A program made the position numbers and the translations under genes. 64,000 nt of DNA from positions 1,696,001 to 1,760,000 of the forward strand of contig CP009479.1 of NCBI GenBank assembly GCA_000965745.1. Direction: 5' to 3'. The DNA is from an uncultured archaeon (lineage in GTDB: Archaea > Thermoplasmatota > Thermoplasmata > Thermoplasmatales > Thermoplasmataceae). This document shows positions 19,077-42,279 of this stretch, piece by piece. The notes beneath the pieces are model-generated. The model was given only the letters and a program-made list of their open reading frames with translations, did no database searches and had not been told where the DNA came from. Within the stretch, counting starts at the first letter, position 1; the number at the start of each line of letters is the position of its first letter.

Positions 19077-19077
19077 C

Positions 19078-19162: not shown

Positions 19163-20296
19163 ATGCCGGCCCACGCAAAGGAATTCTTTGAGGCTAACCT
19201 GGATGAAATTATATCTGATATTCGTGAGCTAGTCACCTGTGAATCTCCTTCCAACGATCCTGAAGCACTACTGAAATGCTCAAGGCTTATCGAGTCAATA
19301 GTTGAAAAAAGGCTTTCAACAAAGGCAGAAAAGGTGGAAGTCAAGGGGAAGAGCCCGATCCTGGTCTTCAGATTTCCGGGAAATACAAATTCCATGCCTG
19401 CACTGCTTCTCACACATTATGACACGGTGCATTCCATGGGCGTAATCAACGAATTTCCATTCTCATACAAATCGGGAATACTTCAGGGGCCTGGTGTATT
19501 CGACATGAAGACAGGGCTGGTGCAAGGGATATGGGCCTTGAAGTACCTGTGGGATAACGGCCTCATAACCAGGCCGGTCATACTCATGAGCACTCCGGAC
19601 GAGGAAACCGGGAGCAAAGGTTCAAGAAAAACCATCGAAGAAATTGCTGGTCAATGCGAATATGCTGTGGTGCTGGAGGCAAGCGCTGAAGGCATGATTA
19701 AAACCGGTAGAAAAGGCACTGGCCGTTTTACTGTAAAGGTGGTCGGAAAAGCCGCTCACGCTGGCCTTGAGCCGGAAAAGGGAATCAACTCCATTGAAGA
19801 GATGTCGCATATTGTCCTGGAGCTTCAGAAGCTGAATGATAACAAAGAGGGGACAACGGTAAACGTCGGAACAATTCATGGTGGGACGACCTCCAACGTT
19901 GTTCCCGCGGAAGCGGAGATTACTGTAGATATAAGGGTTTGGTCACTGGAAGAGGCTCAACGCATAACTTCCGTATTCAACAGCCTCAAGCCAGCAAACA
20001 AGAATGCCCGGATATCAGTGACCGGGGAGTTCGATCGCCCTCCGATGATCTCAAGCGAGAAAACAAGGAAACTGGTCGACGTGATCAAGGAGATCTCTTT
20101 CGAAATGGGCAAGAAGCTAGAAGACACCTCTGTAGGCGGGGCAAGTGACGGGAACCTGGTTGCACCACTGGGAGTTCCCGTTATAGATGGGTTTGGAGCA
20201 GTTGGTGGAGGTGCACATTCAAGGTCCGAGTGGGTGGATGTAAGTGAAATACCTTTCAGGGCAGCACTGCTGGCAAGAGTGGTAACACAGATCTAA
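19163..20296 (+). CDS. M20-family metallopeptidase (glutamate carboxypeptidase G2-like)
   Basis: HYDTV, GPGVFDMKTG, PDEETGS, AAHAG, GGASDGN, GAHS. Confidence 0.88.
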   Translation: MPAHAKEFFEANLDEIISDIRELVTCESPSNDPEALLKCSRLIESIVEKRLSTKAEKVEVKGKSPILVFRFPGNTNSMPALLLTHYDTVHSMGVINEFPFSYKSGILQGPGVFDMKTGLVQGIWALKYLWDNGLITRPVILMSTPDEETGSKGSRKTIEEIAGQCEYAVVLEASAEGMIKTGRKGTGRFTVKVVGKAAHAGLEPEKGINSIEEMSHIVLELQKLNDNKEGTTVNVGTIHGGTTSNVVPAEAEITVDIRVWSLEEAQRITSVFNSLKPANKNARISVTGEFDRPPMISSEKTRKLVDVIKEISFEMGKKLEDTSVGGASDGNLVAPLGVPVIDGFGAVGGGAHSRSEWVDVSEIPFRAALLARVVTQI

Positions 20297-20480
20297 GCGG
20301 TACGGTCTCGCTCTCTGGTTTCAACCTATATTGGTGGAAATAGATCGGTGTTAGTAAACATCTCAACATTATGTTCATTCCGATATTCGTTAATCATATG
20401 ACGAATTCCTCTCTAAAGCCTTTGCAATGGCGTATATCCCCACACATAGATTTAAGTATGACAATTTTTATGAAGGCGCT

Positions 20481-22274
20481 ATGGCAAAATTGCACCATAA
20501 ATTTCTGATAGTTTGGGTAGCAGCGGCTTTTCTTGCAGTAAACTTTATTGCAGTAGCTCATGCGGCCACCCAGCCTGCACCCAGTGGAGAGCTGGTCATA
20601 GGAACAGCTCTTGACACAACATTAAGTGATCTTAATCCACTGACAACAGGGAACAGTCTAGCCAGCGATCTCGTGAAACAGATGTACGCTGATAATCTGA
20701 TGTACATGTGGCCGGATGGAAACCTTACACCATGGCTGGCAAACAGTTACACAGTTACTGAACACAGCAATGGATCTGAATCAATACAGTACAACTTGAA
20801 TCCCAACGCTGATTGGGTAAGTGGTTCAAACGTGACAGGGCCGTTAACATCGAAGGATGTCAAATTCACCTTTGACCTGTTAATGGCAAACAACACGCTT
20901 GACAGCACTGGTGTGACTTCAAATCTAACCTCAGTTGTTGCACCCAACAACACAACAGTTGTGTTCAATTTCAACGCTTCCAGCCCGCTTTGGCTCACAT
21001 ACACATCGCAGCAGGTCATACTCCCATCTTCATGGGCATCCTATGATAATGGAAATCTCGCCTCCCTCGGAGGATTCACCAACCTGAAGGCAAAGATAGG
21101 ACAGGAAATAACAGCAGGTCCTTTCTACCTTAGTAAGTCAACACAGCAGGGAGCAACCCTGACGGCAAACACTCACTTCTGGATGGGTTCACCCAAAATC
21201 GCCAAGGTTTACTTCGAGCAGTTCAAATCGACAGCGGCTTCAACAGAGGCACTGAAAACCGGTGCAATAGCAGCTGAATTCCCGTCGCTGAGCGATTACA
21301 ACTCTCTGTCACTAACAGCAAACATAACAAATGTAGTGTTTCCCGAGCCCTGGATATTCAACCTTTGGATGAATGACCAGGTAAGTCCGTTCAACAACAC
21401 ACACCTTAGGCAAGGATTCGCATACGCAATCAACAAACAGCAGATCATAAAGAAGGCAGAAGACGGCCAGGGGGCTGCCGGACCAAGCAACACATCATAC
21501 GGTGGACTTCCAACAGTGCTTAAGCAGGACTGGGCATCTGGCCTGACATACTACGCCTATAATGTCACCAAGGCAAAACAGGAAATCACAATGGCTGGAT
21601 ACAATCTGAGCAACTCAGGATATTTCACCAACAATACAACCGGTGCTACCCTGAACGTAACAATAGTTGACCCGCCAATCGCAGACTGGGAGGCCGCGGC
21701 GACATTCATCGTAGCAGACCTTCAGGCTGTGGGCGTGAAAGCATCTCTGCAGATAACCCCGATAAGCACATGGGCCTCGGATGTCTTTAACATAAGCAAC
21801 TTCCAGAGCGGAATAATGACATATTTCGGATATGTTCCTTCCTACACCAATGCTTACTATGACCTTGCTGACCTTTACTCGTATGACGGAGGAAGCAACT
21901 TCAATGTCGAGAACTTCAACAGTTCTACTCTGAACAGCTATTTCCAGAATGCATCCAGGACGACAAACACATCAGTGATAAGCTCAAATCTATCTAATGC
22001 ACAGCATCTGATCGACAGTCAGGTCCCAGTAATACAGATAGGAAACGCCTACAACTACTATGCCTACAACAACAAGCAGGTACAGGGATTCGTTTCTAAC
22101 CTGACAATCAACGACCCGTACAACCTGATGCAGGTATATGCCGTAAAGGGAGCGACTGGACCAGGTCTCTCTGGCACAACACTGTATGAAATAATCGGTG
22201 GCGTCGTAGCTGCAATTGTCATCATAGGTGGAGTTGCATACGGGGTTAGGAAAAGAGGCAAGAAGGAAGACTGA
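20481..22274 (+). CDS. Peptide ABC transporter solute-binding protein (family 5), C-terminally anchored
   Basis: Signal peptide, LNPL, TSKDVKFTF, AGPF, C-terminal TM plus basic tail; TTTAAG box about 25 nt before ATG 20481. Confidence 0.88.
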   Translation: MAKLHHKFLIVWVAAAFLAVNFIAVAHAATQPAPSGELVIGTALDTTLSDLNPLTTGNSLASDLVKQMYADNLMYMWPDGNLTPWLANSYTVTEHSNGSESIQYNLNPNADWVSGSNVTGPLTSKDVKFTFDLLMANNTLDSTGVTSNLTSVVAPNNTTVVFNFNASSPLWLTYTSQQVILPSSWASYDNGNLASLGGFTNLKAKIGQEITAGPFYLSKSTQQGATLTANTHFWMGSPKIAKVYFEQFKSTAASTEALKTGAIAAEFPSLSDYNSLSLTANITNVVFPEPWIFNLWMNDQVSPFNNTHLRQGFAYAINKQQIIKKAEDGQGAAGPSNTSYGGLPTVLKQDWASGLTYYAYNVTKAKQEITMAGYNLSNSGYFTNNTTGATLNVTIVDPPIADWEAAATFIVADLQAVGVKASLQITPISTWASDVFNISNFQSGIMTYFGYVPSYTNAYYDLADLYSYDGGSNFNVENFNSSTLNSYFQNASRTTNTSVISSNLSNAQHLIDSQVPVIQIGNAYNYYAYNNKQVQGFVSNLTINDPYNLMQVYAVKGATGPGLSGTTLYEIIGGVVAAIVIIGGVAYGVRKRGKKED

Positions 22275-22307
22275 TAATGAACGGATATGATATCGAGCGT
22301 GTAAGAT

Positions 22308-23309
22308 ATGATTACTAAAAGATATCTGATAACCCGTTCAATCTATGCTATTGCAACGACCTTCGTTGCAATAGTAATAAATTTTTTATTACCAAGATTA
22401 ACACCAGGAAACCCGGCGGTTACTGCCCTTGCAACAACATATCATTATTTGCCGCCTGGAAAATTGAAATTGCTTGAATCCCAGTTTGGCCTCACTAACG
22501 CACCGTTGTATGTACAGTTTGAAACTTATTTCTGGAACCTTCTGCATGGCAATCTGGGATTTTCTTTCCATTATTACCCTGAGACCGTGACGCAGGTTAT
22601 AGCACAGCATCTTCCATGGACTCTTTTCCTTCTGGGAACCGCCACCCTTATCTCATCATTCCTCGGTGTTGTCATCGGCAGGATCACTGGCTGGATGAGC
22701 GGCACTAAGGGAGAGACAACCCTTTCTTCCATATTTATCGCCCTCACCTCACTTCCCTACTTCTGGTTTGCAATCATCCTGCAGCTGGTTCTCGCTGTGG
22801 ACCTCGTCATAAACGGGTTCAGGTTTTTCCCCATCAATGGTTCTTACTCAGTATTTGTTACCCCGGGTGTAAACCTTCCCTTCATCATTAGTGCATTAAG
22901 GCACAGCCTTTTGCCGCTGATCTCAATTGTGGTCACGGCTTTCCCCGGGTTCGCCCTCACAATGCGTAATACCATGGTGAATCTCAATAAAGAGGATTAT
23001 ATAACGATGGCAAAGGCCAAGGGGTTAAGGGAGTCGCATATTGTAAAGAAATACGCGGCACGAAATGCGGTCCTTCCGGTTTCAACACACATTGTCCTGG
23101 CCTTCGGATATATAGTGGCAGGCGCTTTCTTTGTGGAGATTGTTTTCGGTTACCAGGGGATTGGCTACGTGCTCTATGAAGCCGTAACATCACAGGATTT
23201 CCCACTGACGGATGGAATTTTCCTCGTTATAACTCTAACAGTCATAATCGCGAATTTTGCGGCAGACCTGCTCTATGCATACCTTGATCCAAGGGTACAG
23301 TTAAGGTGA
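22308..23309 (+). CDS. dppB: Peptide ABC transporter permease (DppB/OppB)
   Basis: PGNP, LPWTLFL, EDYITMAKAKGL, YAYLDPRV. Confidence 0.9.
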   Translation: MITKRYLITRSIYAIATTFVAIVINFLLPRLTPGNPAVTALATTYHYLPPGKLKLLESQFGLTNAPLYVQFETYFWNLLHGNLGFSFHYYPETVTQVIAQHLPWTLFLLGTATLISSFLGVVIGRITGWMSGTKGETTLSSIFIALTSLPYFWFAIILQLVLAVDLVINGFRFFPINGSYSVFVTPGVNLPFIISALRHSLLPLISIVVTAFPGFALTMRNTMVNLNKEDYITMAKAKGLRESHIVKKYAARNAVLPVSTHIVLAFGYIVAGAFFVEIVFGYQGIGYVLYEAVTSQDFPLTDGIFLVITLTVIIANFAADLLYAYLDPRVQLR

Positions 23310-23315
23310 GGCAAA

Positions 23316-24209
23316 GTGATAGGAAATTATCAAAATGAAACAGAAATAAAGAAGAAAGGCGGGCTTGTGGGTTCTGAAAACCTACTTGTGTCCCTTTTCA
23401 GGAATAAGAAGAGCAGAGCAGGACTCATAGTGTTTGTAATCTTTGCCTTTATTGGAATAGTTGGCCCTTTCCTTGCTCCCTACAGTGCATCATACACAGG
23501 AGGAGCTAATTTCCAGCCGCCTACGAATGCACACCTGCTTGGCACCGATTATATCGGCCACGATGTACTGTCATGGTTCCTTGTGGGGACCGGCGTATCG
23601 CTTTACGTAGGGTTGACGGTAGCCCTGATATCCGTTGCAATAGGGTCGATCGTGGGTCTGGCTTCAGGATATTATGGAGGCATCGTGGACAGCGCATTGA
23701 TGAGAGTAGTAGACATTCTACTCATTCTACCTGGATTCCCGCTTCTTGTCATCCTGTCGGCATATCTTCCCCCAACAAACACTACCACGATCCTCATTCT
23801 GGCAATATTAAGCTGGCCCTTCATGTCAAGGGTGATCAGGTCTCAGGTACTGACTCTAAAGGAACGCCCCTTCATCAAGGCGGCTGTTCTTTCAGGCATG
23901 TCCGGCTCAAAGATCATCTTCAAGGAGATATTCAAGCATGTGATGCCACTGATCGCGATCAACACCGTCTACCTCATGGTTGCAGCAATCGTGGCTCAGG
24001 CAGGATTGGCATTCTTTGGACTTGGAGACCTCAATTCAGTTAATTGGGGCACGTCATTATACTGGGCCCAGACCGAAGATGCTGTGATCTACAATGCCTG
24101 GTGGTGGATTGTTCCCCCCGGAATCTCCATTGCAGTGCTTGGTATAGCAGCTAATCTTTTCGGGTCAGGGCTCACGGAAGTGTCAGGTGAAAAGGCAGGT
24201 GAAATCTGA
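23316..24209 (+). CDS. dppC: Peptide ABC transporter permease (DppC/OppC)
   Basis: HLLGTDYIGHDV, FIKAA..SG, AWWWIVPPG. Confidence 0.9.
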   Translation: MIGNYQNETEIKKKGGLVGSENLLVSLFRNKKSRAGLIVFVIFAFIGIVGPFLAPYSASYTGGANFQPPTNAHLLGTDYIGHDVLSWFLVGTGVSLYVGLTVALISVAIGSIVGLASGYYGGIVDSALMRVVDILLILPGFPLLVILSAYLPPTNTTTILILAILSWPFMSRVIRSQVLTLKERPFIKAAVLSGMSGSKIIFKEIFKHVMPLIAINTVYLMVAAIVAQAGLAFFGLGDLNSVNWGTSLYWAQTEDAVIYNAWWWIVPPGISIAVLGIAANLFGSGLTEVSGEKAGEI

Positions 24210-25180
24210 TGAATGACTTATTGTCCATAAGAGGTCTAGAAACAGTGTTTGACACCAAGAGGGGAACAGTCAAGGCCCTGCGTTCGCTGGATCTTGATAT
24301 CCACAAGGGGGAAACTCTGGCCCTGGTCGGGGAATCCGGCTCTGGAAAATCCACTCTCGGGCTCTCGATAATGAGGCTTATAGAAAGTCCGGGCAGGATT
24401 GCAGAAGGAAGTATAATACTACACGCTACTGAAGATGTGGATGTCACTTCCCTTAAGGGTGGCAAACTGAGGAGATTCAGGTGGAAGAAGGTTGCAATGG
24501 TATTCCAGTCCGCCATGAATGTCCTTAATCCGGTAATGAGAATAGAAGACCAGTTCATAGACGCATTAGAGGCACATGATATTGACAAGTCAGAAATCTC
24601 CGGAAGGATAGACCATTATCTGAAGCTTGCGGGCCTTGGGCCCAAGGTAAGGAGGCTTTACCCGCATGAACTGAGTGGCGGGATGAGACAGAGAGTGAAT
24701 ATCGCCCTTGCACTCAGCTGCGAACCGGATCTACTTATTGCGGATGAACCTACTACCGCACTGGATGTTGTGGTCCAGAAGGAGATACTGAAATCCCTGA
24801 ACACATTGAAGAAACAGCTCGGGCTTACCATAATTTTCATTACCCATGATATATCGGTGGCCGCTTCCGTGGCAGACAGGATGGCCATTTTCTATGCAGG
24901 CAGGATTGTGGAGATAGGGCCTAAGGAAGAGGTCATAAACAGGCCGAGGCATCCGTACTCCAAGGCACTTCTTTCATCCATAATCACCCTGAATACAAAG
25001 CGGGGTCAGGATCTCATTTCGCTAAAGGGGAATCCGCCTGATCTGATCACGCCCATTGAAGGCTGCAGTTTCCACAACAGATGCCCTTCTGCCCGACCAG
25101 AATGCCTGAAATACAAACCGGTTGAGAGTTTAGTATCGTCCGACCACTACGTAGAGTGTCTATACCCGATTGGTGAATAG
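24209..25180 (+). CDS. dppD: Peptide ABC transporter ATPase (DppD/OppD)
   Basis: GESGSGKS, LSGGMRQR, ADEPTTALD, C-terminal oligo_HPY with Cys cluster. Confidence 0.92.
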   Translation: MNDLLSIRGLETVFDTKRGTVKALRSLDLDIHKGETLALVGESGSGKSTLGLSIMRLIESPGRIAEGSIILHATEDVDVTSLKGGKLRRFRWKKVAMVFQSAMNVLNPVMRIEDQFIDALEAHDIDKSEISGRIDHYLKLAGLGPKVRRLYPHELSGGMRQRVNIALALSCEPDLLIADEPTTALDVVVQKEILKSLNTLKKQLGLTIIFITHDISVAASVADRMAIFYAGRIVEIGPKEEVINRPRHPYSKALLSSIITLNTKRGQDLISLKGNPPDLITPIEGCSFHNRCPSARPECLKYKPVESLVSSDHYVECLYPIGE

Positions 25181-25192
25181 GATTGATGTTTC

Positions 25193-26203
25193 ATGTTTGC
25201 TAAATCAGAAAGGAAAGTTGAAGAGAACGTTTCAAGCAGCTCGGTCTCAGGCACTGATGTCATGAGATTCGAGAATGTGACAAAGATTTACAAAAGCGGC
25301 CCCATCGTGAATTATGCACTTGACGACGTGAGCTTCAGCCTTAGAAAGGGGGAGACCATCTCCATAGTCGGGGAAAGTGGCAGCGGCAAAACAACCTTGG
25401 GAATGGCAGCGATAAATTTATTGAACTATGACAGGGGAACAATCTATTTTGAAAACATGCCGGTAAAAAAACTCAACAGGAAACAGAGAAAGAAATTCAG
25501 GGCTGGTTCACAGATGATTTTCCAGGATCCATATGGATCTCTTAACCCATACAATTCGGTATATGACTCTGTAGTAGCTCCTCTAAACAGTTTCAGGCCA
25601 GATTTGTCTCGTTCACAGAAAAGGGAGGAGGTCCTCAAAATGCTTGACAAAGTAGGGCTAAGGCCTGCGGAGTCATACATTGACGAATTTCCGAAGAAAC
25701 TGTCAGGTGGCCAGAGGCAGAGAGTCTCGATAGCCCGTGCATTGATCATGCGCCCTGAGCTCATCATCGCCGATGAACCAACTTCTATGCTCGACGTGTC
25801 TGTCAGTTCAACCGTTATGACACTGCTGAATCATCTTAAAGAGGAGATGAATTTCTCCATGCTGTACATCTCCCACGAGCTAGCAACAGCACGTTACATT
25901 TCCGAAAGAATGGCGGTTATGAACCTTGGAAGGATAGTAGAAATCGGAGGGTCAGACAGCATCGTGGATCACCCTTTGCACCCGTACACGAAGCTACTGC
26001 TCACCTCGATGCCCGATGTCAATAACAGCAACTCGGAGGAAATGGACGTGACACTGGATTTCGACATCTACAATGGAGGGATAAAGGGCTGCAGTTTCGC
26101 TACCATGTGCCCCTTTGTCAGGGAGAACTGCAAAGAATCAAGGCCCGAATTGAACAAAGTGGAAGAAGACCACTACGTCGCCTGTTTCTACCCGTTGACA
26201 TAA
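25193..26203 (+). CDS. dppF: Peptide ABC transporter ATPase (DppF/OppF)
   Basis: GESGSGKT, FQDPYGSLNP, LSGGQRQR, ADEPTSMLD, HPYT. Confidence 0.92.
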   Translation: MFAKSERKVEENVSSSSVSGTDVMRFENVTKIYKSGPIVNYALDDVSFSLRKGETISIVGESGSGKTTLGMAAINLLNYDRGTIYFENMPVKKLNRKQRKKFRAGSQMIFQDPYGSLNPYNSVYDSVVAPLNSFRPDLSRSQKREEVLKMLDKVGLRPAESYIDEFPKKLSGGQRQRVSIARALIMRPELIIADEPTSMLDVSVSSTVMTLLNHLKEEMNFSMLYISHELATARYISERMAVMNLGRIVEIGGSDSIVDHPLHPYTKLLLTSMPDVNNSNSEEMDVTLDFDIYNGGIKGCSFATMCPFVRENCKESRPELNKVEEDHYVACFYPLT

Positions 26204-26267
26204 CGAAGGCCTTAGTAATGCATTCAAGGTACAATTCCAGCATTTTTCCTGGAGCAGGAGGGTAAGG

Positions 26268-26822
26268 ATGCAGTCAGATACGGCCGTTGTTATATTGGGA
26301 ATGAGGGTTGGATTGGGCGGCCCCGGGGAAGAACTTGCAGGAAGGATCAGGGTTGCCATGTCAGTCGCATCAAGGATCGACCCAGAATACATAGTACTGA
26401 CCGGAGGGGTTACAAGCCATGAGACCTCAAGCTCCGAAGCCGAAGAGATGTTCACACACATCATAGAGAATTACCCTGAGAGTGACAACACATTTATCCT
26501 GGAGGATGAGGCTCTCGATACTCTTGGGAATGGCATTTTCACACGTGAGAAGCTGAAGGAATACCCTGAGATAACTAAATTACACATTGTCACCAGTTGC
26601 TACCATCTTCACAGAAGCCAATTTATCTTTGCCAGGAGTTTTTCGAACGAATACCTGACCATTGTCGAAGAATGCTTCGACTGCGACTCCAATAACGCAA
26701 CAATGGAGCAGCAAAAGCTGGCCGAAGCCCATGAATTTTTCAGGAGGGCGGAGGAGTCAGGGACCTGCTATATGGATGCACTGCTGGAAACTGAGATATA
26801 CCTTGGAAAGAAGGTATATTGA
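26268..26822 (+). CDS. YdcF/DUF218 (SanA/ElyC-like) family protein
   Basis: VILG, VLTGG, SEAEEM, LEDEALDTLGN, VTSCYHLHRS. Confidence 0.8.
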   Translation: MQSDTAVVILGMRVGLGGPGEELAGRIRVAMSVASRIDPEYIVLTGGVTSHETSSSEAEEMFTHIIENYPESDNTFILEDEALDTLGNGIFTREKLKEYPEITKLHIVTSCYHLHRSQFIFARSFSNEYLTIVEECFDCDSNNATMEQQKLAEAHEFFRRAEESGTCYMDALLETEIYLGKKVY

Positions 26823-26839
26823 ATTTCAGGACAGTTCCT

Positions 26840-32083: not shown

Positions 32084-32095
32084 AAATAAATTCTC

Positions 32096-33118: not shown

Positions 33119-33178
33119 TCATCAGTGAGGTGTAGTGCAATTATACATTTTTGGTTGACAAAAAGCTGCCAGGCGGCG

Positions 33179-34267
33179 CTATTCGATATTTCTGAATACT
33201 GCGTTGTGGAACAGCCTCCTGAACCTAAGGATGCCGATGTTGTCCCTTGTTGGGTAAACGCGGTTGCTCAGTACAGTTACGGCAATTTTCCTTTTTATAT
33301 CTATCACCAGGGATGTGCCGGTAAATCCCGTGTGTCCGATAGTGCCAAAGTCCGCATAGTCGCCCATGAATGACGAGAACCCGAAAGAATCACTCGGATT
33401 CCTTGGTCTGGGCAGCTTTATCATCCATCCAAGCCCAAAAGTTCCTCCAAGGTACTCATTGGCCGGCGAGGACATAAGGTTCAGTGTACTGGAAGAGAAA
33501 AGCCTGCATTCAAGAAGGGCATTGGTAAACCTGGACATGTCTTCAAGATTGCTGAAGAGGCCTGCGTGGCCTGCAACTCCGCCAAGATAGAACGCATTTT
33601 CATCGTGCACTTTGCCCCATACGAGGCCACGTTCTTCTGTCATCTCTGTAGGGGCAACCGTATCTTTGGAAAAATCCGGGTTGAAGGACGAACTCTTCAT
33701 TCCAAGAGGATCGAATATCTCTTCACGGGCAAGCACATCGAGACGCTTTCCGGATATGTGCTCAAGGAGGAATGCGAGGGTCATGAAGTTCAAGTCACTG
33801 TACTCCTCTTTTGTATACATGCTGGCAGATGCTGCGAAACCCTTTATTCCAGTGAGATAACCTTCCCTGTTTTGCCCAAAAGAGTACAGCGGGTAATGCC
33901 ATATCAGTCCCGAAGAGTGTGAAAGAAGGGATTTGACAGTCAGCTGTCCAGCTCTGCCAGAATCTGCAAACAGCCCTAGTGATGCAAGGGAGTCATCGAG
34001 CGCAATCTTCCCCCGGTCTAACATTTTCATGACAAGCGTGGTCGTGACTACAGGTTTTGTCAGTGAAGCCATATCAAAAATCGTCTCTTTGTTGAAATGA
34101 AATTCAGGACTGCCAATGTTTCCTTCTGCAAATGCAAATTCGCTTCTTCCCTCAATAGTCACGGAAGCTGCCATTCCCGGTGAAACTGCCGGGATATGTT
34201 CCTTTATCAGGGACCGCAATTCGAGAGTTGCCTCCTTTCTCAATCTTATTCCTGCCAGATCACTCAT
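33179..34267 (-). CDS. amiE: Beta-lactamase-fold serine hydrolase, AmiE/YbbE-like MurNAc-L-Ala amidase
   Basis: FDMASLTK (SxxK), YSDLNF, GKVHDENAFYLGGVAGHAGLFS (YbbE/AmiE subfamily motif), GHTGFTGT; clustered with nagZ/namZ/murQ. Confidence 0.72.
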   Translation of the reverse strand: MSDLAGIRLRKEATLELRSLIKEHIPAVSPGMAASVTIEGRSEFAFAEGNIGSPEFHFNKETIFDMASLTKPVVTTTLVMKMLDRGKIALDDSLASLGLFADSGRAGQLTVKSLLSHSSGLIWHYPLYSFGQNREGYLTGIKGFAASASMYTKEEYSDLNFMTLAFLLEHISGKRLDVLAREEIFDPLGMKSSSFNPDFSKDTVAPTEMTEERGLVWGKVHDENAFYLGGVAGHAGLFSNLEDMSRFTNALLECRLFSSSTLNLMSSPANEYLGGTFGLGWMIKLPRPRNPSDSFGFSSFMGDYADFGTIGHTGFTGTSLVIDIKRKIAVTVLSNRVYPTRDNIGILRFRRLFHNAVFRNIE

Positions 34268-34296: not shown

Positions 34297-35280
34297 TCAC
34301 TTCACAACTTTAGTCAACTTTTCGGGCTTGTCAGGGTTCAGGCCCATGCTGTTTGCTTTGTAGTACGCGAGTAGTTGTATCGGAATAGAATACCTTATTG
34401 GGGCAAACATACCTGGATCGTATGGAAGCTTTACCGTATCCATTTCTGCTGATCCCATCGTAATGATGCTGCTCGTGTATTTTTTCATCTCTGAAATGAC
34501 CGGTGAATAGCCATCATAGGCATCTCTCAGTATCATCACCGAGGTATCTGCATCAAGTGTCTGTATCGGGCCGTGCAGATATTCACGTATCTGGTACGCT
34601 TCCGTCAGAAGGTTGCCGGTTTCCCTGAATTTAAGTGCTCCTTCGAGTGCAGTGCCAAACATGTACCCATTTCCAAGAAACACTATTCGGCTTTTCAGGG
34701 CCCTGGAAAGGTGCTCATATTCTCCGGTGTGTGAAGTGGCATTATCTGCCCAGGATGCTATTTCTGTAACATAACTCATCGGGTCCATGCCGTGAAGATG
34801 GCCCTGGATCAAGGCTACAGCTGTCAGCTGGGCAACATAACTCTTCGTTGCAGCTATTGCAGTTTCACTGCCTGCAGATGTTAACACGGATATGTCTGCT
34901 TTATGGGCCAGTGAGCTATTTTCCTCATTCGTTATTCCGATCACCCTTGCACCGCAGACAGCAGAAAGGTTGAGTGCATTCAGTGCATCAGCACTTTCTC
35001 CAGATTGGCTCATAACAACTACTGCCACTTTCTTCTCCGGTTTTCCTGGAATGTAATTTTCAAAATCAGGCGCCTTGACCAGTACTGCCGGCACATCCTC
35101 CTTCAGCAGGGATATTTGCAGAGAAAGGCCTGCATGATAGCTCGTGCCGCTGCCTGTTATGATCACATAATCGGAGCCAAGAAGGGCGTCTGCTGCTTCA
35201 CCTGCTGATTTCCGCACGGATTCAACAGTTCTCAGTATGGATTTTCCATCCTGTTTTATTTCATCAAGCATAACAGACAT
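34297..35280 (-). CDS. Double-SIS glucosamine-6-phosphate deaminase (isomerising; GlmD/NagB-II type)
   Basis: GlmS isomerase-like motifs GSGTSYHA, SQSGES, ATKSY, EGALKFRE, EYLHGP, NPDKPEKLTKVV, with no glutaminase domain. Confidence 0.8.
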   Translation of the reverse strand: MSVMLDEIKQDGKSILRTVESVRKSAGEAADALLGSDYVIITGSGTSYHAGLSLQISLLKEDVPAVLVKAPDFENYIPGKPEKKVAVVVMSQSGESADALNALNLSAVCGARVIGITNEENSSLAHKADISVLTSAGSETAIAATKSYVAQLTAVALIQGHLHGMDPMSYVTEIASWADNATSHTGEYEHLSRALKSRIVFLGNGYMFGTALEGALKFRETGNLLTEAYQIREYLHGPIQTLDADTSVMILRDAYDGYSPVISEMKKYTSSIITMGSAEMDTVKLPYDPGMFAPIRYSIPIQLLAYYKANSMGLNPDKPEKLTKVVK

Positions 35281-35342: not shown

Positions 35343-36455
35343 TCAGAGGTTCTTTATTTCATTCAACAATTGAAAGTAGTTATCTCCAGGGAGAATTTTT
35401 CCGAGGACAGCAGGCTTTCCGCCACTTGCCTCAGTGTTGCCAATTCTGTTATGCAGGGTCTGGTTTGCGATAACAGCGAATCCGACACCTTCCCTTGCCT
35501 TGTCGTCTATGCCATGATCGCTGAATCTCTCAACCTTGACTGAAAACAGATCTGCGAGGTCTTTCATAAGTACCGGATTAAAGCTGCCTCCACCGCCTAC
35601 GATTATTGTCCCAATCCTGTGTGGGATAAACCTGTCCATTTGGTCCTTGATGGATTCTGCCGTGAATCTGGTCAGGGTCCTGATCACATCTTTCTGCGGC
35701 ACATCTTCTTCTGAAATCCTCTTCTGTACATAATCTTCTGTGAAATATTCCCTGCCAGTACTTTTTGGAGGACTTTTCCTGAAGTAATCATCGTCCAGGA
35801 GTTTCATGAGCAATGCTTCATTTATAGAGCCTCCCCCGGCAAACTCCCCATTCTCATCATAATCGCGGCCGGTAAATTTCTTCATGAAGGTATCGATGAG
35901 CATATTTCCCGGCCCGGTGTCAAATGCAATTAATCTATCGCCAATGTATGTGATGTTGGAAATTCCACCTATGTTCAGAGTAACAGTTCCTTCCTCCCCG
36001 AACAATAGCTTGTCGGAAAGTGGAATGAGTGGCGCTCCATCACCACCCATGCTCAGGTCGGTTGTCCTGAAATCGAAAATAACCGTTTTCCGGGTTCTGG
36101 AGAAAATCTCAGAGGGCTCTCCGATCTGAAGTGTCCCTTTATCACGTTTGCCGAGTGATGGACCATGAAATACGGTATACCCGGAAAATGCCACAACATC
36201 ATAATCCCAGTCGAGTATCCCGAGCGACTCTCCCACAAACCGGCCAAGGTACCAGTGGGCTTCGCTGAATTCCTCACTGGTCAACGGTTTCATGGTTGAA
36301 ACTTTGAGCAGCATTTCCCTGAGTGAATCGCTGAATGGAAATTCAACATGCTGCAGCACCCTGACTCTAGTGGTCTCATCCCACCCGTTGATTTCCAGAA
36401 GCGAAATGCTCAATCCATCAGTGGATGTTCCGGTTACGACAGAGGCAAACTTCAA
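35343..36455 (-). CDS. anmK: Anhydro-N-acetylmuramic acid kinase
   Basis: GTSTDG, TLQIG, DFR..D..MGGDGAPL, LNIGGISNIT, AFDTGPGNMLID, PPKSTGREYF, GGGSFN. Confidence 0.92.
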   Translation of the reverse strand: MKFASVVTGTSTDGLSISLLEINGWDETTRVRVLQHVEFPFSDSLREMLLKVSTMKPLTSEEFSEAHWYLGRFVGESLGILDWDYDVVAFSGYTVFHGPSLGKRDKGTLQIGEPSEIFSRTRKTVIFDFRTTDLSMGGDGAPLIPLSDKLLFGEEGTVTLNIGGISNITYIGDRLIAFDTGPGNMLIDTFMKKFTGRDYDENGEFAGGGSINEALLMKLLDDDYFRKSPPKSTGREYFTEDYVQKRISEEDVPQKDVIRTLTRFTAESIKDQMDRFIPHRIGTIIVGGGGSFNPVLMKDLADLFSVKVERFSDHGIDDKAREGVGFAVIANQTLHNRIGNTEASGGKPAVLGKILPGDNYFQLLNEIKNL

Positions 36456-36544: not shown

Positions 36545-37366
36545 ATGGAAGGCACAGAAGACAACAATACATTTTCGAGGAACATAGACCAATGGAATAC
36601 GCCTGAAATTCTCAAGTTCATCCATCTATCAGACATCGATGCCTATGAAGCGGTTTCTGCAGCAATGGAACAGATAACGGAAGCAACGGAGAAGATAGTT
36701 GAAAGGCTTGATGATGGCGGAAGAGTCATCTATGCGGGAGCCGGGACAAGCGGAAGGCTGGCTGCTCAGGACGTCGCTGAACTCTGGCCAACATACGGTA
36801 TAGGTTCGACACTCTTTGACTACATAATAGCCGGGGGCAGGGAGGCAATCAGCCACTCAGTCGAAGGTGCAGAAGACAGCCTGCAGGAATCGGTTGACCT
36901 TTTGAAGCAGAAAGGTTTGGGGAAAAATGATGTTGTCTTCGGAATAACAGCTTCCGGAACTACCCCGTTTGTCTTATCTGCACTTGAATATGCCAGGTCG
37001 GTGGGCGCCCTGTCAGTCGGAATGACGAATAACAGGTGCAGGCCTGTTGAGGAGATCGCAAAGATTGCAATAGTTCTGAACACCGGACCTGAGGTTATAC
37101 AGGGGTCTACAAGGATGAAAGCTGGAACATCACAGAAAATGGTCCTGAGCATGATTTCCACAGCAGTTGCCATCAAGCTTGGCTACACCCACAGGAACAC
37201 CATGTCCAACATGGGCGCATGGTACAACCAGAAGCTCCAGAGGAGGGCAGTGAAGATGGTTGTCCAGGAGTTTGGCGTGAGTGAAGCAGATGCAAGGAAG
37301 CTGCTTGAAGACCACTCCTACAGGATCGCGGAGGTATTTTCGCTCCTAAGCAGAAAAAAGGGCTGA
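36545..37366 (+). CDS. murQ: N-acetylmuramic acid 6-phosphate etherase
   Basis: GAGTSGRL, DVAELWPTY, EGAED, GITASGTTPFV, TGPEVIQGSTRMKAGTSQK. Confidence 0.93.
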   Translation: MEGTEDNNTFSRNIDQWNTPEILKFIHLSDIDAYEAVSAAMEQITEATEKIVERLDDGGRVIYAGAGTSGRLAAQDVAELWPTYGIGSTLFDYIIAGGREAISHSVEGAEDSLQESVDLLKQKGLGKNDVVFGITASGTTPFVLSALEYARSVGALSVGMTNNRCRPVEEIAKIAIVLNTGPEVIQGSTRMKAGTSQKMVLSMISTAVAIKLGYTHRNTMSNMGAWYNQKLQRRAVKMVVQEFGVSEADARKLLEDHSYRIAEVFSLLSRKKG

Positions 37367-37426: not shown

Positions 37427-38533
37427 ATGGCGGCAAAAAACATGATTCTATCGTATTGCTTCAGAGACTCGAACGGAGATATAATTGAGTCCTGCAACCA
37501 GACGTATCCTCTTCTTCCCGCCTCAAACATTAAGGTCGTCTCCGGCTATACGGCTTACAGGATGCTCGGAAGAGACTTTGAGTTCAGGACCGATTTCTCC
37601 CTCCATGATAAAGATATGCTGATACACGGTGATCCAACGCCATTGCTGAGCAGGCAGAAGCTCAGGGAAATACTAGTGGCGTCCGGGTTAGACAGGAAAG
37701 ACCTTGAAAGGGTGCTTTTCAAAGATGATATATTTGACGACAGGGAATTTGCGGATGGCTGGAGTATAGAAGACATAGGCTTCTGCTACCAGGCCCGGGT
37801 TGTCCCTTTCTCAGTCGACGAGGGGTGCTACTGTAAAGAACAGGGTGGGTGTGATGGAAGTGCGCCCCTCCATGATGTCGCCAAACAATCGGTAAATGAC
37901 CAGCTGGCAAATTTTGCCAGGGAGATATCCAGTATTGTTTCAGCGAACAACGAAATAGAATACGGCCGGTTCACCCATAATTCCAGCAATCCTCATTTCG
38001 TTTACAGGGAGAGCCTGCTGGATATTCTAGACCACATTGAAGTTTACAGCTGCAATTTTTCAATAGAGGTGCTTACAAAATATCTGTCCTACAGAAAGAC
38101 TGGCAGGGGTTCATGGGAGGACTCTGCAGAAATAATATCGGATTACATGAAATCGCTGGGGCTGGATGCATCAGGCATAAGAATCGTCGACGGGTCCGGC
38201 CTTTCAAGGTCAAACCTGATGAGTACGGAATTTCTTTCAGATCTGGCACACAAAATCATCGAGAATGGTGACAACGAATTCATGAAACTTCTGCCCTCTC
38301 CGGGAAGGGGAACATTGAGGGGCAGGCTGGACAAGCTTTCAAATTTAGGCCTGCACGCCAAAACAGGCTCTCTCGAATATTGTGGAAGCCTGACAGGCTA
38401 CCTGGAGAAGCCTGGAGTCTTTTTCAGCATAATCATAAACAACTCTCTGGAGAATGGGAAAAAGATCATAAACAAGATAGACAACCTCCTGGTGGATTTC
38501 CTTGGCAGAAACGGGATTCAATTGGAAGGTTAG
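37427..38533 (+). CDS. dacB: Peptidase S13 D-Ala-D-Ala carboxypeptidase/endopeptidase (PBP4-like), no signal peptide
   Basis: PASNIK (SxxK), GDP, SCN (SxN), DGSGLSRSN, GTL..R, AKTGSL (KTG). Confidence 0.88.
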   Translation: MAAKNMILSYCFRDSNGDIIESCNQTYPLLPASNIKVVSGYTAYRMLGRDFEFRTDFSLHDKDMLIHGDPTPLLSRQKLREILVASGLDRKDLERVLFKDDIFDDREFADGWSIEDIGFCYQARVVPFSVDEGCYCKEQGGCDGSAPLHDVAKQSVNDQLANFAREISSIVSANNEIEYGRFTHNSSNPHFVYRESLLDILDHIEVYSCNFSIEVLTKYLSYRKTGRGSWEDSAEIISDYMKSLGLDASGIRIVDGSGLSRSNLMSTEFLSDLAHKIIENGDNEFMKLLPSPGRGTLRGRLDKLSNLGLHAKTGSLEYCGSLTGYLEKPGVFFSIIINNSLENGKKIINKIDNLLVDFLGRNGIQLEG

Positions 38534-39261
38534 GTTATTTCCACGAGCTCTCTCTGCTCAACCTTCTCTATTTTAACGTCATGCGGAAATCTGGAAGCCT
38601 TCAGCAGGCTCGATGAGACCACTCCCACCCAGCCTTCTTTCTCGACCCGGTACATCGTAACATATTCATTGTCAAACCTGCTGTCCCCGTAGTAAAAGAG
38701 CCTCCCCTTCCTGGTGACCTTGTCAACAGCAAGGACAAATATGTTGTTCGTTGTTTTTACAAAATCAAACCTTCCTGAATCCTCTAGGGTTTTTCGTATC
38801 TTTTCTTCAATATCTCCCTCCTGCCTCATCAGGTACTCAAGAAAGAACTCACTGTCCGGCTGATTGTCAAGATTACCTTCATTGAGGGCGCCGGCTATGT
38901 TCTCTTTCCTGTATGAGCCATTATGAACGAGATAGACGTCGTACTCAGTGTTGCTTCGGTGATGGGGGTGCGAGTCAAGCATTCCGACCGGTTCACCTGC
39001 GGCTGCCTTTCGTGCATGGACAACAAGTATCCCACTTTCGGGGAACTCAGGTTTTCTGCTGTTGAAAATAGGCTCCCGGTACCTTCTGAAATCTATTGAG
39101 TTTTGGTCCATAGCCACATATCCCCAGCCATCGTCGTGGGACGGGTCACCTTTTCTGTCTTCAGGGAACAGTGGATCATGCCTGCATACTTCTACAAGCG
39201 ATTCAAAAACATCATTCGCATCAGATTTGAAATCCCCAAACATCGTAAACATTCTACACAA
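38530..39261 (-). CDS. Class II glutamine amidotransferase-like Ntn hydrolase (YafJ/EgtC-like)
   Basis: TTG start at 39261 gives M-C-R-M (N-terminal nucleophile Cys), HDDGWG, HARKA, HPH, HNGS, DSE. Confidence 0.8.
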   Translation of the reverse strand: MCRMFTMFGDFKSDANDVFESLVEVCRHDPLFPEDRKGDPSHDDGWGYVAMDQNSIDFRRYREPIFNSRKPEFPESGILVVHARKAAAGEPVGMLDSHPHHRSNTEYDVYLVHNGSYRKENIAGALNEGNLDNQPDSEFFLEYLMRQEGDIEEKIRKTLEDSGRFDFVKTTNNIFVLAVDKVTRKGRLFYYGDSRFDNEYVTMYRVEKEGWVGVVSSSLLKASRFPHDVKIEKVEQRELVEIT

Positions 39262-39369: not shown

Positions 39370-40191
39370 ATGAGGATACTGATCTCGGTTGATGCAGAGG
39401 GGCTTCAGGGCATAACGTTCGGTACGCAGGTTCTTCCCGGGATGCCCGATTATTATCTGGCAAGAGAGACAATGGCACAGTCGGTAAACAGCGTGGGACG
39501 GGGAATTAGGTCAAGCGGTGTCGCCGAGAAGGTTACTGTTGTAGATTCACACGATGGAAGCAGGAATATACTTGCAGAATCACTCGACCCGGGAATTTCA
39601 TTGATAACTGGGGGACCTAAGCCCTTGAGCATGGTCGAGGGAGCCAGGAAAACTGATAAAATGTTCTTACTGGGTTATCACCCCAGGGCAGGAACTGAAG
39701 CCGGTGTACTTGACCACACCTATTCCACCAATGTTCACAGGCTCAGGATAAACGGGGAAGAAATGGGGGAGATTGGCCTGAGTGCCTCAGTTGCCGGCCA
39801 TTTTGGAGTCCCCGTTACTTTGTTGGCAGGAGACAGGGCTGCGGTTGGGGAAGGTGAGAAGATTATCAATGACGCTGAATTTGTAGTCCTGAAAGATGGC
39901 ATATCCAGGTACTCTGCAGAAACTTCAGTTCCAGTTGATGCCGAATCGATGCTGGAGAAATCTGCGCTTAAAGGTGCCAGGAGAAAGGGAACTCCTTTCG
40001 TCATTGATGGCAGCGTGGAAGTTTCATTAGAATTCCAGAACACGGGGATGGCGGACAACTGCATGATGCTTCCCGGTACGGTCAGAAAGGACGGCTATAC
40101 AGTACAGGCTGAAGCAAAGGATATCGTTGAGGCATACAGGATTTTCAGGGTGCTTGTATCGCTGTCATCATTTGATCATGGTGGTTATTGA
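39370..40191 (+). CDS. dppA: M55-family D-aminopeptidase (Bacillus DppA type)
   Basis: ISVDAEG, DSHDG, KPLSMVEG, GYH, HTYS, GE, GD. Confidence 0.9.
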   Translation: MRILISVDAEGLQGITFGTQVLPGMPDYYLARETMAQSVNSVGRGIRSSGVAEKVTVVDSHDGSRNILAESLDPGISLITGGPKPLSMVEGARKTDKMFLLGYHPRAGTEAGVLDHTYSTNVHRLRINGEEMGEIGLSASVAGHFGVPVTLLAGDRAAVGEGEKIINDAEFVVLKDGISRYSAETSVPVDAESMLEKSALKGARRKGTPFVIDGSVEVSLEFQNTGMADNCMMLPGTVRKDGYTVQAEAKDIVEAYRIFRVLVSLSSFDHGGY

Positions 40192-40203: not shown

Positions 40204-40908
40204 TCAATATGGCAGGCTGATCCTTGTGGATCTGTCGATTCTGCCTATTTTTTCAAATATTTTCAAAAGAAGCTGTGAATATTCACTACCATCAGACAGA
40301 TCACTGTAGGTAACTCCGCCGTTGTGGAGGTTCGCATGGATTATCGTGTTGTTCCCAAGATAGAGGCCAACGTGTCCTTCAAAGAAGACAAGGTCGCCTG
40401 ATTCAGCGTCTTCAAACGAGTCGACTGTTAATGAATTATCCCTCTGCCAACCCGCATTTCTCGGAATTTCAATCCCATTGAACCTGAAAAGCCTCTGCGT
40501 GAAGCCTGAGCAGTCATAGCCCAGATCGGACGTGCCTCCCCAGAGGTATGGGACTGTCAGGAACTCATGGGCAGACTCTGAAGGTTCAAGCCTTTCTTCA
40601 AGTTTCATCAGCAGGTTTTCGGGGATATCATGTTCGGAAATATCATCATCGTTGACACAGGACCCGAATGAAAAGATCATTCTCGTTGAGCGATAATTTC
40701 TCCTAATCCTGTAATTTTTCTTTCTGCCTTCCGATACCAGGGTTCTGAGGACGTATCCTTTCAGCTTGTCCGCCCCTTCCACGTAAAGGTAATCATCGGA
40801 TTCTGAAATCACCTTGACTTCTTCGCCGAATATTAGCTGAGAGTCCCTTTCACTGTGAAAGTCTGCCCCGACCCTGACATCTGCAACGCTGAAGGAAATG
40901 TATGACAT
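40204..40908 (-). CDS. NlpC/P60 (C40) peptidase, YkfC-like gamma-D-glutamyl-diamino acid endopeptidase
   Basis: SH3-like N-terminus (SQLIFGEEV), PYLWGG, DCSGF, PRNAGWQ, GDLVFF.GHVGLY, IIHA; no signal peptide; TTTTAA about 25 nt before ATG 40908. Confidence 0.85.
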   Translation of the reverse strand: MSYISFSVADVRVGADFHSERDSQLIFGEEVKVISESDDYLYVEGADKLKGYVLRTLVSEGRKKNYRIRRNYRSTRMIFSFGSCVNDDDISEHDIPENLLMKLEERLEPSESAHEFLTVPYLWGGTSDLGYDCSGFTQRLFRFNGIEIPRNAGWQRDNSLTVDSFEDAESGDLVFFEGHVGLYLGNNTIIHANLHNGGVTYSDLSDGSEYSQLLLKIFEKIGRIDRSTRISLPY

Positions 40909-41001
40909 GCCTGCGGTCATTCTCAGGACGCCTTAAAAGCTTTTTACCCGATTCTTCACTCTCCTGATGCAACTTAAATAAGATGGCAAAGATACTGTGG
41001 C

Positions 41002-42279
41002 ATGTCTGGCAGACTGCATATCCCTCCACCTTTCCAGGAAAGAGAAGGCCGCCTGTATCTTGATGGCCTTGACCTTGTTGAAATAGCTTCCAGGTATGGA
41101 ACGCCCGTTTACGTCACTTCATCAGGAAGGATCAGGGAGAATTACAGGAGAATTTACAGTGCATTCAAGGAGAGGTATGATAATTTTTCCGTGAAATACG
41201 CAGTCAAAGCAAATTCAAATCCACACATAATCTCGGTCCTGGCAGAAGAAGGGGCAGGAGCTGATGTCTCCAACCTGAACGAGCTTCTTATTGCAGAAAA
41301 GTCAGGCATTCCCGCAAAGCAGATCCTCATGTCGCCCAACAACCTCAGCAGGGAGGAACTTGCTAAAGCCTCCAGCAGGGGTGTTGCGATTAACTTTGAC
41401 GACATAGGCCAAATGGAAATCATTTCAGACAGCCTTCCGAGTTTAGTTTCGTTCAGGGTAAACCCCGGCATCGGCAGGGGAGAATTTCCCGGAACAGTAA
41501 CTGCGGGCCCGGACGCCAAGTTTGGAATCCCTGAGGATCACGTTATTGAAGCGTACAGGAAAGCGAAGGATCACGGTGTCAGAAGATTCGGCATCCAGAT
41601 GATGACCGGTTCCAACGTTCTGGATTCCGGCTATTTTGGTGCGATAACATCAAAATTATTTGACATAACAAGAAGAATAAGCGATCATGCAGGCATTGAT
41701 TTTGAATTCGTGGACATAGGTGGAGGCTTTGGCGTCCCATACAGGCCTGATGAAAAGGCACTCCCGATCGATGTTGTGGCCGGGGAAGTGTCCAGAGGCC
41801 TGAAGGATAAGTTCGCTTCCGTTGGAAAACCTCTCCCTGCACTCTTTGTGGAGCCTGGCAGGTATCTTGTTGCGGATTCGACGGTGCTGCTCGGCAGAAT
41901 AACAAACGTGAAGTCATATGGAAAGACATTCATCGGGACTGATGTGGGGATGAATACGCTACTGAGGCCCGCACTTTATGGAGCATACCATCCGGTTTCG
42001 ATTGCCAACAAGCTCGATCATGAAGCCAAAATCACTGCAGATGTTGTAGGGCAGATCTGTGAAAACACTGACCGGATTGCCCTTGACAGACGCCTCCCCG
42101 ATGTTGAGGAGGGAGATATACTGGCAGTTTTCAATGCCGGGGCATACGGATTCAGCATGAGCAACCAGTTTAATGGCCACGGAAAGCCCGCTGAAGTCCT
42201 GGTCTCCGACGGTAAAGACAAGCTCATAAGGAGAAGGGAAAACATAGATGATCTACTGCAGACCGTGGTCCACGATTAA
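41002..42279 (+). CDS. lysA: Diaminopimelate decarboxylase
   Basis: YGTP, YAVKAN (PLP Lys), RVNP, KFG, DIGGGFG, EPGRYLV, RPALY, GQICENTD, GAYG. Confidence 0.92.
   Translation: MSGRLHIPPPFQEREGRLYLDGLDLVEIASRYGTPVYVTSSGRIRENYRRIYSAFKERYDNFSVKYAVKANSNPHIISVLAEEGAGADVSNLNELLIAEKSGIPAKQILMSPNNLSREELAKASSRGVAINFDDIGQMEIISDSLPSLVSFRVNPGIGRGEFPGTVTAGPDAKFGIPEDHVIEAYRKAKDHGVRRFGIQMMTGSNVLDSGYFGAITSKLFDITRRISDHAGIDFEFVDIGGGFGVPYRPDEKALPIDVVAGEVSRGLKDKFASVGKPLPALFVEPGRYLVADSTVLLGRITNVKSYGKTFIGTDVGMNTLLRPALYGAYHPVSIANKLDHEAKITADVVGQICENTDRIALDRRLPDVEEGDILAVFNAGAYGFSMSNQFNGHGKPAEVLVSDGKDKLIRRRENIDDLLQTVVHD

Follow-up and report, generated by a model that had tools for sequence, protein, structure and literature searches.

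A gene cluster for the probable salvage of bacterial peptidoglycan in archaea belonging to the Thermoplasmatales

The DNA analysed here (the window: 64,000 nucleotides, positions 1,696,001 to 1,760,000 of contig CP009479.1, assembly GCA_000965745.1) belongs to an uncultured, acidophilic archaeon of the family Thermoplasmataceae, whose genome is a single contig of 2,226,687 bases. Between positions 19,163 and 42,279, the window contains 21 consecutive, uninterrupted open reading frames (ORFs), most of them from families that process bacterial peptidoglycan. A preliminary description had proposed about 20 contiguous genes in this place, most of them with murein-processing motifs. When the window proteins were compared with Pfam and NCBIfam profiles, with curated cut-offs where available, every family that it had named was recovered at its position, and two genes that it had missed, encoding a DUF218 protein and a GATase_4 hydrolase, were added. 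MurQ, NagA and LysA scored over curated cut-offs, whereas AnmK (386.8 bits, cut-off 387) fell short by 0.2 bits and DacB (TIGR00666, 102 against 108) by 6 bits. The window proteins carry the catalytic motifs, as do all but a few of their orthologues. No Rfam family matched in the window.

The first part of the block encodes, on the forward strand, an oligopeptide-type ATP-binding cassette (ABC) importer. It comprises the OppA-type solute-binding protein (20,427-22,274, likely start at 20,481; SBP_bac_5, E 4e-49), the permeases OppB (22,308-23,309; BPD_transp_1; at most 67% identity in related clusters) and OppC (23,316-24,209; BPD_transp_1 plus OppC_N), and the ATPases OppD (24,209-25,180) and OppF (25,193-26,203), each with ABC_tran and oligo_HPY domains. 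OppA has membrane anchors at both termini, low charge and 20 N-glycosylation sequons, is present in 10 of 19 related clusters, and is a candidate muropeptide receptor. It is followed, after the ATPases, by the cytoplasmic DUF218 protein (26,268-26,822, forward), which recurs in 11 of those 19 clusters.

The sugar-side enzymes follow. NagZ, a putative beta-N-acetylglucosaminidase of family GH3 (28,271-29,671, forward; GH3/NagZ, E 2e-55), carries the motif KHFPGHG..DSH, in agreement with the GH3 pattern KH(F/I)PG(H/L)GxxxxD(S/T)H, and the nucleophile Asp249; its score for NF003740 (158) is under the cut-off of 207. NamZ, a predicted exo-beta-N-acetylmuramidase (DUF1343; 29,684-30,775, reverse; E 7e-65), has both NamZ_N and NamZ_C domains and the glutamate of the PEHG motif. 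The AmiE-like protein (33,179-34,267, reverse; Beta-lactamase family, AmiE/PBP4B-like) has SxxK, YSD and HTG motifs, its gene is linked to nagZ and murQ, and it is 30% identical to the product of the gene at the amiE position in the murQ-nagZ-namZ locus of Bacillus sonorensis. As no dedicated hidden Markov model matched it and no Protein Data Bank (PDB) relative appeared at E 1e-15, its designation as a muramoyl-L-alanine amidase, rather than an esterase or a carboxypeptidase, is a family-level call. None of these three proteins has a signal peptide.

Phosphorylation would be carried out by two kinases. The BadF-type kinase (32,096-33,118, reverse; BcrAD_BadFG) is MurK-like and predicted to convert N-acetylmuramic acid (MurNAc) as well as N-acetylglucosamine (GlcNAc) to their 6-phosphates; among PDB entries it matched the MurNAc/GlcNAc kinase 8zo3 with 112 bits (E 3e-31) and an archaeal hexokinase with 106 bits (2e-29). 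The putative anhydro-MurNAc kinase AnmK (35,343-36,455, reverse) has Asp179 and Glu322, and PDB AnmK structures, the closest being that of Pseudomonas, outscored levoglucosan kinase. The putative MurNAc-6-phosphate etherase MurQ (36,545-37,366, forward) was over the cut-offs for NF003915 and NF009222 and matched PDB 4lzj with E 1e-57; alignment to H. influenzae MurQ, its closest solved relative, identified the catalytic Glu79 and Glu110, so that cleavage of MurNAc-6-phosphate is predicted from family and catalytic residues.

The putative GlcNAc-6-phosphate deacetylase NagA (31,010-32,083, forward) reached 264 bits for TIGR00221, with a cut-off of 226. Its homology begins some 35 codons further upstream than the called GTG (30,893-31,010; to about 30,905), in a frame without ATG, GTG or TTG, with ATT at 30,896 and ATC at 30,905, and identical in a Logan contig; a non-canonical start or a truncated N-terminus is possible. 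The double-SIS protein (34,297-35,280, reverse; SIS, below all cut-offs) corresponds to the isomerase half of GlmS without the glutaminase domain, and is a probable glucosamine-6-phosphate deaminase of NagB-II/GlmD type. A split GlmS made of this protein and the GATase_4 hydrolase was considered and rejected, as the latter is of YafJ/EgtC type and is present in 5 of 19 clusters against 12 of 19 for the SIS protein. Full-length GlmS was not detected in the host genome, which has the cluster SIS gene and a 22% identical paralogue; the host might thus draw on salvaged amino sugar for glycans of its own as well.

On the peptide side, the shortened, cytoplasmic DacB/PBP4-like DD-peptidase (37,427-38,533, forward; Peptidase_S13) carries SxxK and KTG motifs. 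The Ntn-fold GATase_4 protein (38,530-39,261, reverse), of the class-II glutamine-amidotransferase fold, has a likely TTG start that would place a cysteine at its N-terminus, and is a candidate gamma-glutamyl or amide hydrolase. The M55 D-aminopeptidase DppA (39,370-40,191, forward; Peptidase_M55) is encoded next to ykfC and lysA in three relatives (G003, G047 and G056). The YkfC-type protein, a predicted gamma-D-Glu-diamino-acid peptidase (40,204-40,920, reverse), combines SH3b and NlpC/P60 domains, retains Cys137 and His183, and has its best PDB matches in B. cereus 3h41 and dipeptidyl-peptidase VI. The last gene encodes LysA, diaminopimelate decarboxylase (41,002-42,279, forward), over the cut-off for TIGR01048.

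The carboxypeptidase-G2-like M20 peptidase at the left flank (19,163-20,296, forward; Pfam M20, best PDB match carboxypeptidase G2, E 3e-39) had been counted in the peptide arm. Its family was correct, whereas its specificity to the cluster did not hold: orthologues occur in 50 of 169 genomes of the order, 28 of the carriers belong to the 136 genomes without MurQ, and congeners that lack the block retain it. Therefore, it was treated as a flank gene, possibly with a part in the pathway. The idea that M20 substitutes for an absent epimerase was unsupported, as M20 co-occurs with the epimerase and also occurs without MurQ.

The location of the proteins was assessed with an N-terminal hydropathy scan, not with a signal-peptide predictor. 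Among archaeal copies, an N-terminal hydrophobic stretch was present in 0 of 20 NagZ, 0 of 16 NamZ, 0 of 16 AmiE, 0 of 14 DacB and 0 of 16 YkfC, the window YkfC included, compared to 10 of 21 NamZ and 18 of 70 NagZ from bacteria. Only two proteins of the block, OppA and the product of 26,840-28,075 (reverse), combine two anchors with the low-charge, sequon-rich and Ser/Thr/Asn-rich composition of the genome's other surface proteins. The second, a membrane-tethered extracellular cysteine hydrolase of 411 residues identified by family alignment and model, is the sole exported enzyme of the block. Its family comprises 86-87 proteins, with few named members, all archaeal, and invariant Cys109, His227 and Gln239. 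The model (predicted local distance difference test 85) places residues 64-280 in an NlpC/P60-CHAP peptidoglycan-hydrolase fold, followed by a PKD/Ig domain, and aligned to the endolysin Lys2972 with a VIA Z of 10.7 (root-mean-square deviation 2.4, 123 aligned residues) and to CwlO with 9.3; Foldseek matched only the Ig/PKD stalk. A papain-like fold with a Cys-His-polar triad is thus predicted by the model. The earlier label of an exported amidase-like protein stands as to export and, in the model, as to the fold, whereas the Amidase_6 assignment (PF12671) lies below the Pfam gathering threshold (19 bits against 23.2, E 0.0016; Atlas gave Amidase_6 at 0.92). Among genomes carrying this hydrolase, 21 of 22 also have MurQ, NagZ or NamZ.

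Such an enzyme might lyse live bacteria on contact, with the cluster harvesting the wall. Its export on a PKD/Ig stalk, a fold shared with endolysins and type VI secretion amidase effectors (Lys2972, Tae3), and the existence of bacteria-killing archaeal peptidoglycan hydrolases (PMC12352652) are in line with such active antagonism or necrotrophy. On the other hand, the protein carries an anchor at either end and lacks a recognised wall-binding domain, Cuniculiplasma and Picrophilus keep the rest of the system without it, and Gram-negative neighbours would presumably be shielded by their outer membrane. In addition, the 5-8 genomes searched yielded no GH25, SLT, GH73, Amidase_2 or Amidase_3 protein, and the host genome no M23 motif. 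As every hydrolase but the tethered one is cytoplasmic and these searches gave neither an endolytic lysozyme nor a secreted amidase family, killing is an unlikely explanation, and of the two uses left side by side in the preliminary description, scavenging or antagonism, the former is better supported.

The putative substrate does not appear to be made by the host. Profiles PF00905, PF00912 and PF02873 had no match in its genome and were positive in 10 control bacteria; hence neither penicillin-binding transpeptidase nor transglycosylase nor MurB was found there. Its lone gene of the Mur-ligase family reads as FolC, and a crude scan detected no MraY, Alr or Ddl motifs. DapB and DapF were also not found in the host genome, leaving LysA without an evident endogenous substrate. 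DacB and DUF218 are wall-associated families in bacteria, which would fit a host that makes and recycles a murein-like polymer of its own. The absence of the synthesis genes just named and the catabolic nature of MurQ make this extremely improbable, and the earlier statement that the cluster does not recycle the host's own wall was borne out: there is no host wall, no phosphotransferase system (PTS) gene in the cluster and no secretion.

All genes of the block are of bacterial type, they are patchily distributed, and the block is missing from two congeners, as would be expected from bacterial contamination or a recent, non-functional insertion. Against this, the block lies within one contig of a genome that is 99.4% complete and 1.1% contaminated, and the single copy of small-subunit rRNA has an archaeal top score. 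Composition is typical of the genome, with a GC fraction of 0.474 for the cluster against 0.464 and a tetranucleotide distance ranking 58 of 111. One metagenome contig, possibly from the source sample, covers 14,001-34,000, and a separate, independent study supplies overlapping contigs that span the region with about 99% identity; the data sets holding this DNA are soil metagenomes from three studies, and no RNA data set is listed among them. The cluster is also present in isolate genomes, LT671858.1 (Cuniculiplasma divulgatum S5) and AE017261.1 (Picrophilus), which, together with the C. divulgatum proteome, already refute contamination; the odds of this alternative are negligible, and the check for a bacterial chimera came out in favour of the archaeal assignment. 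Both C. divulgatum S5, with MurQ on LT671858.1, and Picrophilus oshimae belong to the GTDB family of the host. The Picrophilus relative with MurQ is named P. oshimae at NCBI, and AE017261.1, with the same Picrophilus cluster, is presumably P. torridus DSM 9790.

In trees, archaeal MurQ, NagZ and AmiE each fell on one side of a branch with SH-like approximate likelihood ratio support of 99-100 against the bacteria sampled, whereas archaeal NamZ formed two groups with long branches meeting, so that a single origin of NamZ was not supported. As the bacterial sample was small and biased to NagZ (outgroups came from a NagZ profile search whose listed matches were all bacterial) and the method was quick, no donor is proposed. 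For some MurQ proteins the placement crosses genus boundaries, as for G110, which grouped with the host genome and not with its genus-mates G032 (C. divulgatum S5) and G111, hinting at transfer within the order.

Of 169 genomes of the order, 33, from 12 of 37 genera and three families, have a MurQ orthologue. NagZ was present in 32 of the MurQ-positive genomes, NamZ in 29, LysA in 32 and the tethered hydrolase in 20; the corresponding numbers among the 136 MurQ-negative genomes were 4, 3, 32 and 2. These counts are given without a statistical test, as related genomes are not independent. The genes remain clustered in 19 related genomes, in reshuffled order. The system is order-wide rather than unique to the host. 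Two genomes in which MurQ was not found have a peptide-only module, epimerase-dacB-lysA-dppA-ykfC. A sample of 401 genomes from the phylum contained four MurQ-positive genomes outside the order, with bacterial-type copies and without this cluster in the DNA fetched. In a distant Thermoplasmatota family, all three genomes carry a bacterial-type murQ beside a PTS IIB-like gene (L143:11724-15112, L144:9079-12489), apparently a separate acquisition. The relative G023 has a second, bacterial-type murQ, grouping with Bacillota, behind an Opp operon of its own (L033:6048-12742).

This conserved association bears on whether the enzymes have shifted to other substrates, such as amino sugars of chitin or N-glycans, levoglucosan-type anhydrosugars or generic D-amino-acid peptides. 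GH3 enzymes, NagA, BadF kinases and SIS deaminases also serve GlcNAc use, the kinase is nearly as close to archaeal hexokinase, AnmK is related to levoglucosan kinase, and the block lies within a wider region of amide and peptide hydrolases. A shift would nevertheless leave unexplained why MurQ, NamZ, AmiE, YkfC, DacB, LysA and the epimerase, which have no substrate in common but peptidoglycan, remain grouped despite repeated shuffling, and it is at odds with the conserved catalytic motifs. We regard it as improbable, even more so than killing.

At the DNA level, the variable core spans about 20,300-41,000. The congener G002 (96% complete) has the same flanks, with 70-79% DNA identity, and M20 directly joined to lysA, the 20.7 kb between them being gone; in the congener G001, M20 runs to the formamidase gene. 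In contrast, the relative G003 has retained the cluster genes, and its dppA-ykfC-lysA occupies the same site on the right. No direct repeats were found at the block ends. The simplest reading is that an ancestral block has been lost in some lineages. At 20,322-20,351, two runs of one independent study show contig breaks and a decrease in summed depth from about 120-150 in the flank to about 65-80 inside; this drop, which is not a share of cells, is a weak hint that only some strains have the block.

In C. divulgatum, at least seven cluster proteins are listed in the proteome (PMC7285479 supplements): CSP5_1664, 1665, 1668, 1677, 1679, 1681 and 1683, annotated in that order as beta-lactamase-family protein, GlmS-like protein, Ala-Glu epimerase, Xaa-Pro dipeptidyl-peptidase, dipeptidyl-peptidase VI, LysA and DUF1343. 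They were mapped by order and annotation, and the locus spacing agrees with the gene order in the C. divulgatum S5 genome. In the portion of the proteome listing covered, CSP5_1663, 1666, 1667, 1675, 1676 and 1678 did not appear, which does not indicate that they are absent. The string 'muram' is absent from the main text of that paper. The organism has been characterised as a scavenger whose lysine synthesis is incomplete (PMC5155288).

Several of these genes are known from bacterial systems. The murQ-murR-murP-amiE-nagZ-namZ operon of B. subtilis (PMC8054146) likewise groups MurQ, AmiE, NagZ and NamZ, and the same murQ-amiE-nagZ-namZ linkage was found in Bacillota and Actinomycetota loci. 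In B. subtilis, NagZ, AmiE and NamZ are secreted and together digest intact peptidoglycan (PMC8054146), whereas the archaeal host has no wall of its own and the three enzymes are cytoplasmic (0 of 52 copies with an N-terminal hydrophobic stretch). Neither the MurP PTS nor MurR is among the 21 block genes, the rest of the genome not having been searched for them; the archaeal cluster has the ABC importer and two kinases instead. The cluster also resembles the E. coli AnmK-MurQ-NagA-NagB route and the MurK routes of Clostridium acetobutylicum and Tannerella (PMC5790795) in its AnmK, MurQ, NagA and BadF-family kinase, and differs in having both entries in one cluster, an SIS-type deaminase for NagB and no return to wall synthesis.

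Stem-peptide salvage in B. subtilis is encoded by dppA-dppBCDE-ykfABC. DppA, a peptide ABC importer and YkfC are shared with the archaeal cluster, and YkfB-like epimerase and YkfA/LdcA-like genes occur in relatives; unlike dpp-ykf, the host lacks the epimerase and LdcA and has, in addition, LysA as the final step of salvage and a DacB located in the cytoplasm. A parallel in wall-less hosts is provided by anaerobic ciliates, which have borrowed pbp4b, namZ, anmK, murQ, nagB and lysA, nearly the same bacterial-derived set, and are proposed to digest bacterial walls (PMC13198582). The ciliate genes are scattered and were taken from transcriptomes, while the archaeal system is clustered with its own importer. 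In archaea, the peptidoglycan hydrolases Woldo, Danwoldo and A. boonei B5ID12 have been reported, with an association with Opp-MppA homologues and scavenging left open (PMC12352652). In contrast to these secreted modular killers, the cluster would be a downstream intracellular catabolic pathway. The terms 'MurQ', 'recycling' and 'catabol' have no occurrences in Strock et al. 2025 (PMC12352652), and no description of this pathway in archaea was found in the literature searched, which left most subscription journals outside its scope; the earlier remark that the full pathway was not known from archaea thus agrees with our search.

Taken together, these data favour, with a probability of roughly 0.85, a catabolic salvage system for foreign (bacterial) peptidoglycan that came from bacteria long ago and was re-wired for low external pH; these archaea probably feed on bacterial wall debris. 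The data establish the families, their clustering, the protein locations and the lack of wall synthesis; we infer the enzymatic activities and the transporter cargo. Soluble muropeptides would arise outside by bacterial autolysis, phage lysis or acid hydrolysis, possibly aided by the tethered NlpC/P60 enzyme through cleavage of stems or cross-links. The Opp-type transporter would import the fragments, probably with the sugar still attached, given the cytoplasmic location of the sugar-side enzymes and the lack of a PTS gene in the cluster; Agrobacterium YejBEF-YepA provides an ABC precedent (PMC9790009). In the cytoplasm, NagZ, AmiE and NamZ would remove GlcNAc, peptide and MurNAc or anhydro-MurNAc in turn, and DacB would split DD cross-links. 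The MurK-like kinase and AnmK would then yield MurNAc-6-phosphate and GlcNAc-6-phosphate, MurQ would release D-lactate, and NagA and the SIS deaminase would give acetate, ammonia and fructose-6-phosphate. YkfC would cut the bond between gamma-D-Glu and meso-diaminopimelate (mDAP), DppA would take D-Ala peptides, and LysA would convert mDAP to lysine, which the cell is predicted to be unable to make by the diaminopimelate route.

The lactate would probably be oxidised by a GlcDF-type enzyme, the GlcD/GlcF orthologues being elsewhere in the host genome and inside the cluster in three relatives. Neither PFK-A nor ADP-dependent phosphofructokinase was found in the host genome, which has motifs for transketolase, transaldolase and fructose-bisphosphate aldolase/phosphatase. 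Therefore, fructose-6-phosphate probably feeds pentose-phosphate and biosynthetic pools, sparing gluconeogenesis rather than fuelling glycolysis. Genes added in relatives fit the same substrate: an epimerase-like enzyme (L-Ala-D/L-Glu) in 15 of 19 related clusters, LdcA in Cuniculiplasma and the GlcD/GlcF-type oxidase; GNAT and S15 peptidase genes are further additions.

A number of observations weigh against this salvage reading. NagZ, AmiE, the SIS protein, DppA and the kinase are below equivalog cut-offs and are assigned at the family level. The host genome has no L-Ala-D/L-Glu epimerase orthologue, the best match being an OSBS/MenC-type enzyme with 27% identity, and no LdcA, no S66 protein matching over the cut-off, so that the stem-peptide arm has gaps in the host; the proposed conversion of glycan and stem peptide to fructose-6-phosphate, lactate and amino acids is thus supported by the families and incomplete on the peptide side. 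E. coli MppA/Opp reportedly carries freed peptides only (PMC10622912), which makes sugar import by this ABC transporter an assumption. With no endolytic glycan hydrolase found (GH25, SLT, GH73) in the genomes searched, nothing accounts for the release of importable fragments from the sacculus, the tethered hydrolase is absent from Cuniculiplasma and Picrophilus, and the C. divulgatum proteins come from cells cultured with beef extract, so that their presence does not point to induction by peptidoglycan.

An OSBS/N-acylamino-acid-racemase-type gene lies at genome positions 1,686,908-1,688,818 (L038:10908-12818), divergent from a paralogue of the cluster GATase_4 gene; the edge of the Cuniculiplasma cluster consists of dacB-GNAT-GATase and, after it, a similar enolase-family gene and M20. 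By its family, the enzyme is a possible route for D- to L-amino-acid conversion.

The wider neighbourhood (13,918-19,076 and 42,327-61,379) encodes cyclase, formamidase, amidohydrolase, amidase, M20, M24 and hydantoinase A/B proteins, in a synteny kept in congeners. Three orphan SBP_bac_5 proteins of 930 residues, without adjoining permease genes, are encoded at 16,260-19,076, 42,327-45,122 and 52,387-55,182, and the family is expanded to at least seven copies in the host genome. Further upstream, ORFs of 986 (5,690-8,650) and 326 (4,720-5,700) residues without Pfam match precede a UvrD helicase-PD-(D/E)XK nuclease gene (9,662-12,541).

With less assurance than for the salvage function itself, we consider it fairly likely that about one fifth of Thermoplasmatales have a dedicated and long-resident system that imports sugar-bearing muropeptides from neighbouring bacteria, degrades glycan and stem in the cytoplasm and obtains lysine from mDAP, many of them with an archaea-specific tethered NlpC/P60 hydrolase that opens walls. 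To the question raised by Strock et al. 2025 (PMC12352652), whether peptidoglycan is food or only a target of attack, the cluster supplies the missing downstream pathway, and its presence in cultured C. divulgatum S5 and Picrophilus makes the question testable by growth, isotope and enzyme assays. If confirmed, such a system would be the first pathway for peptidoglycan catabolism in archaea and one way in which bacterial necromass is turned over in acidic habitats. It would assign roles to DUF218, the GATase_4 hydrolase and a new family of tethered NlpC/P60 enzymes, and would give a concrete substrate to the 'scavenger' lifestyle of Thermoplasmatales, suggesting a medium supplement for their uncultured members.

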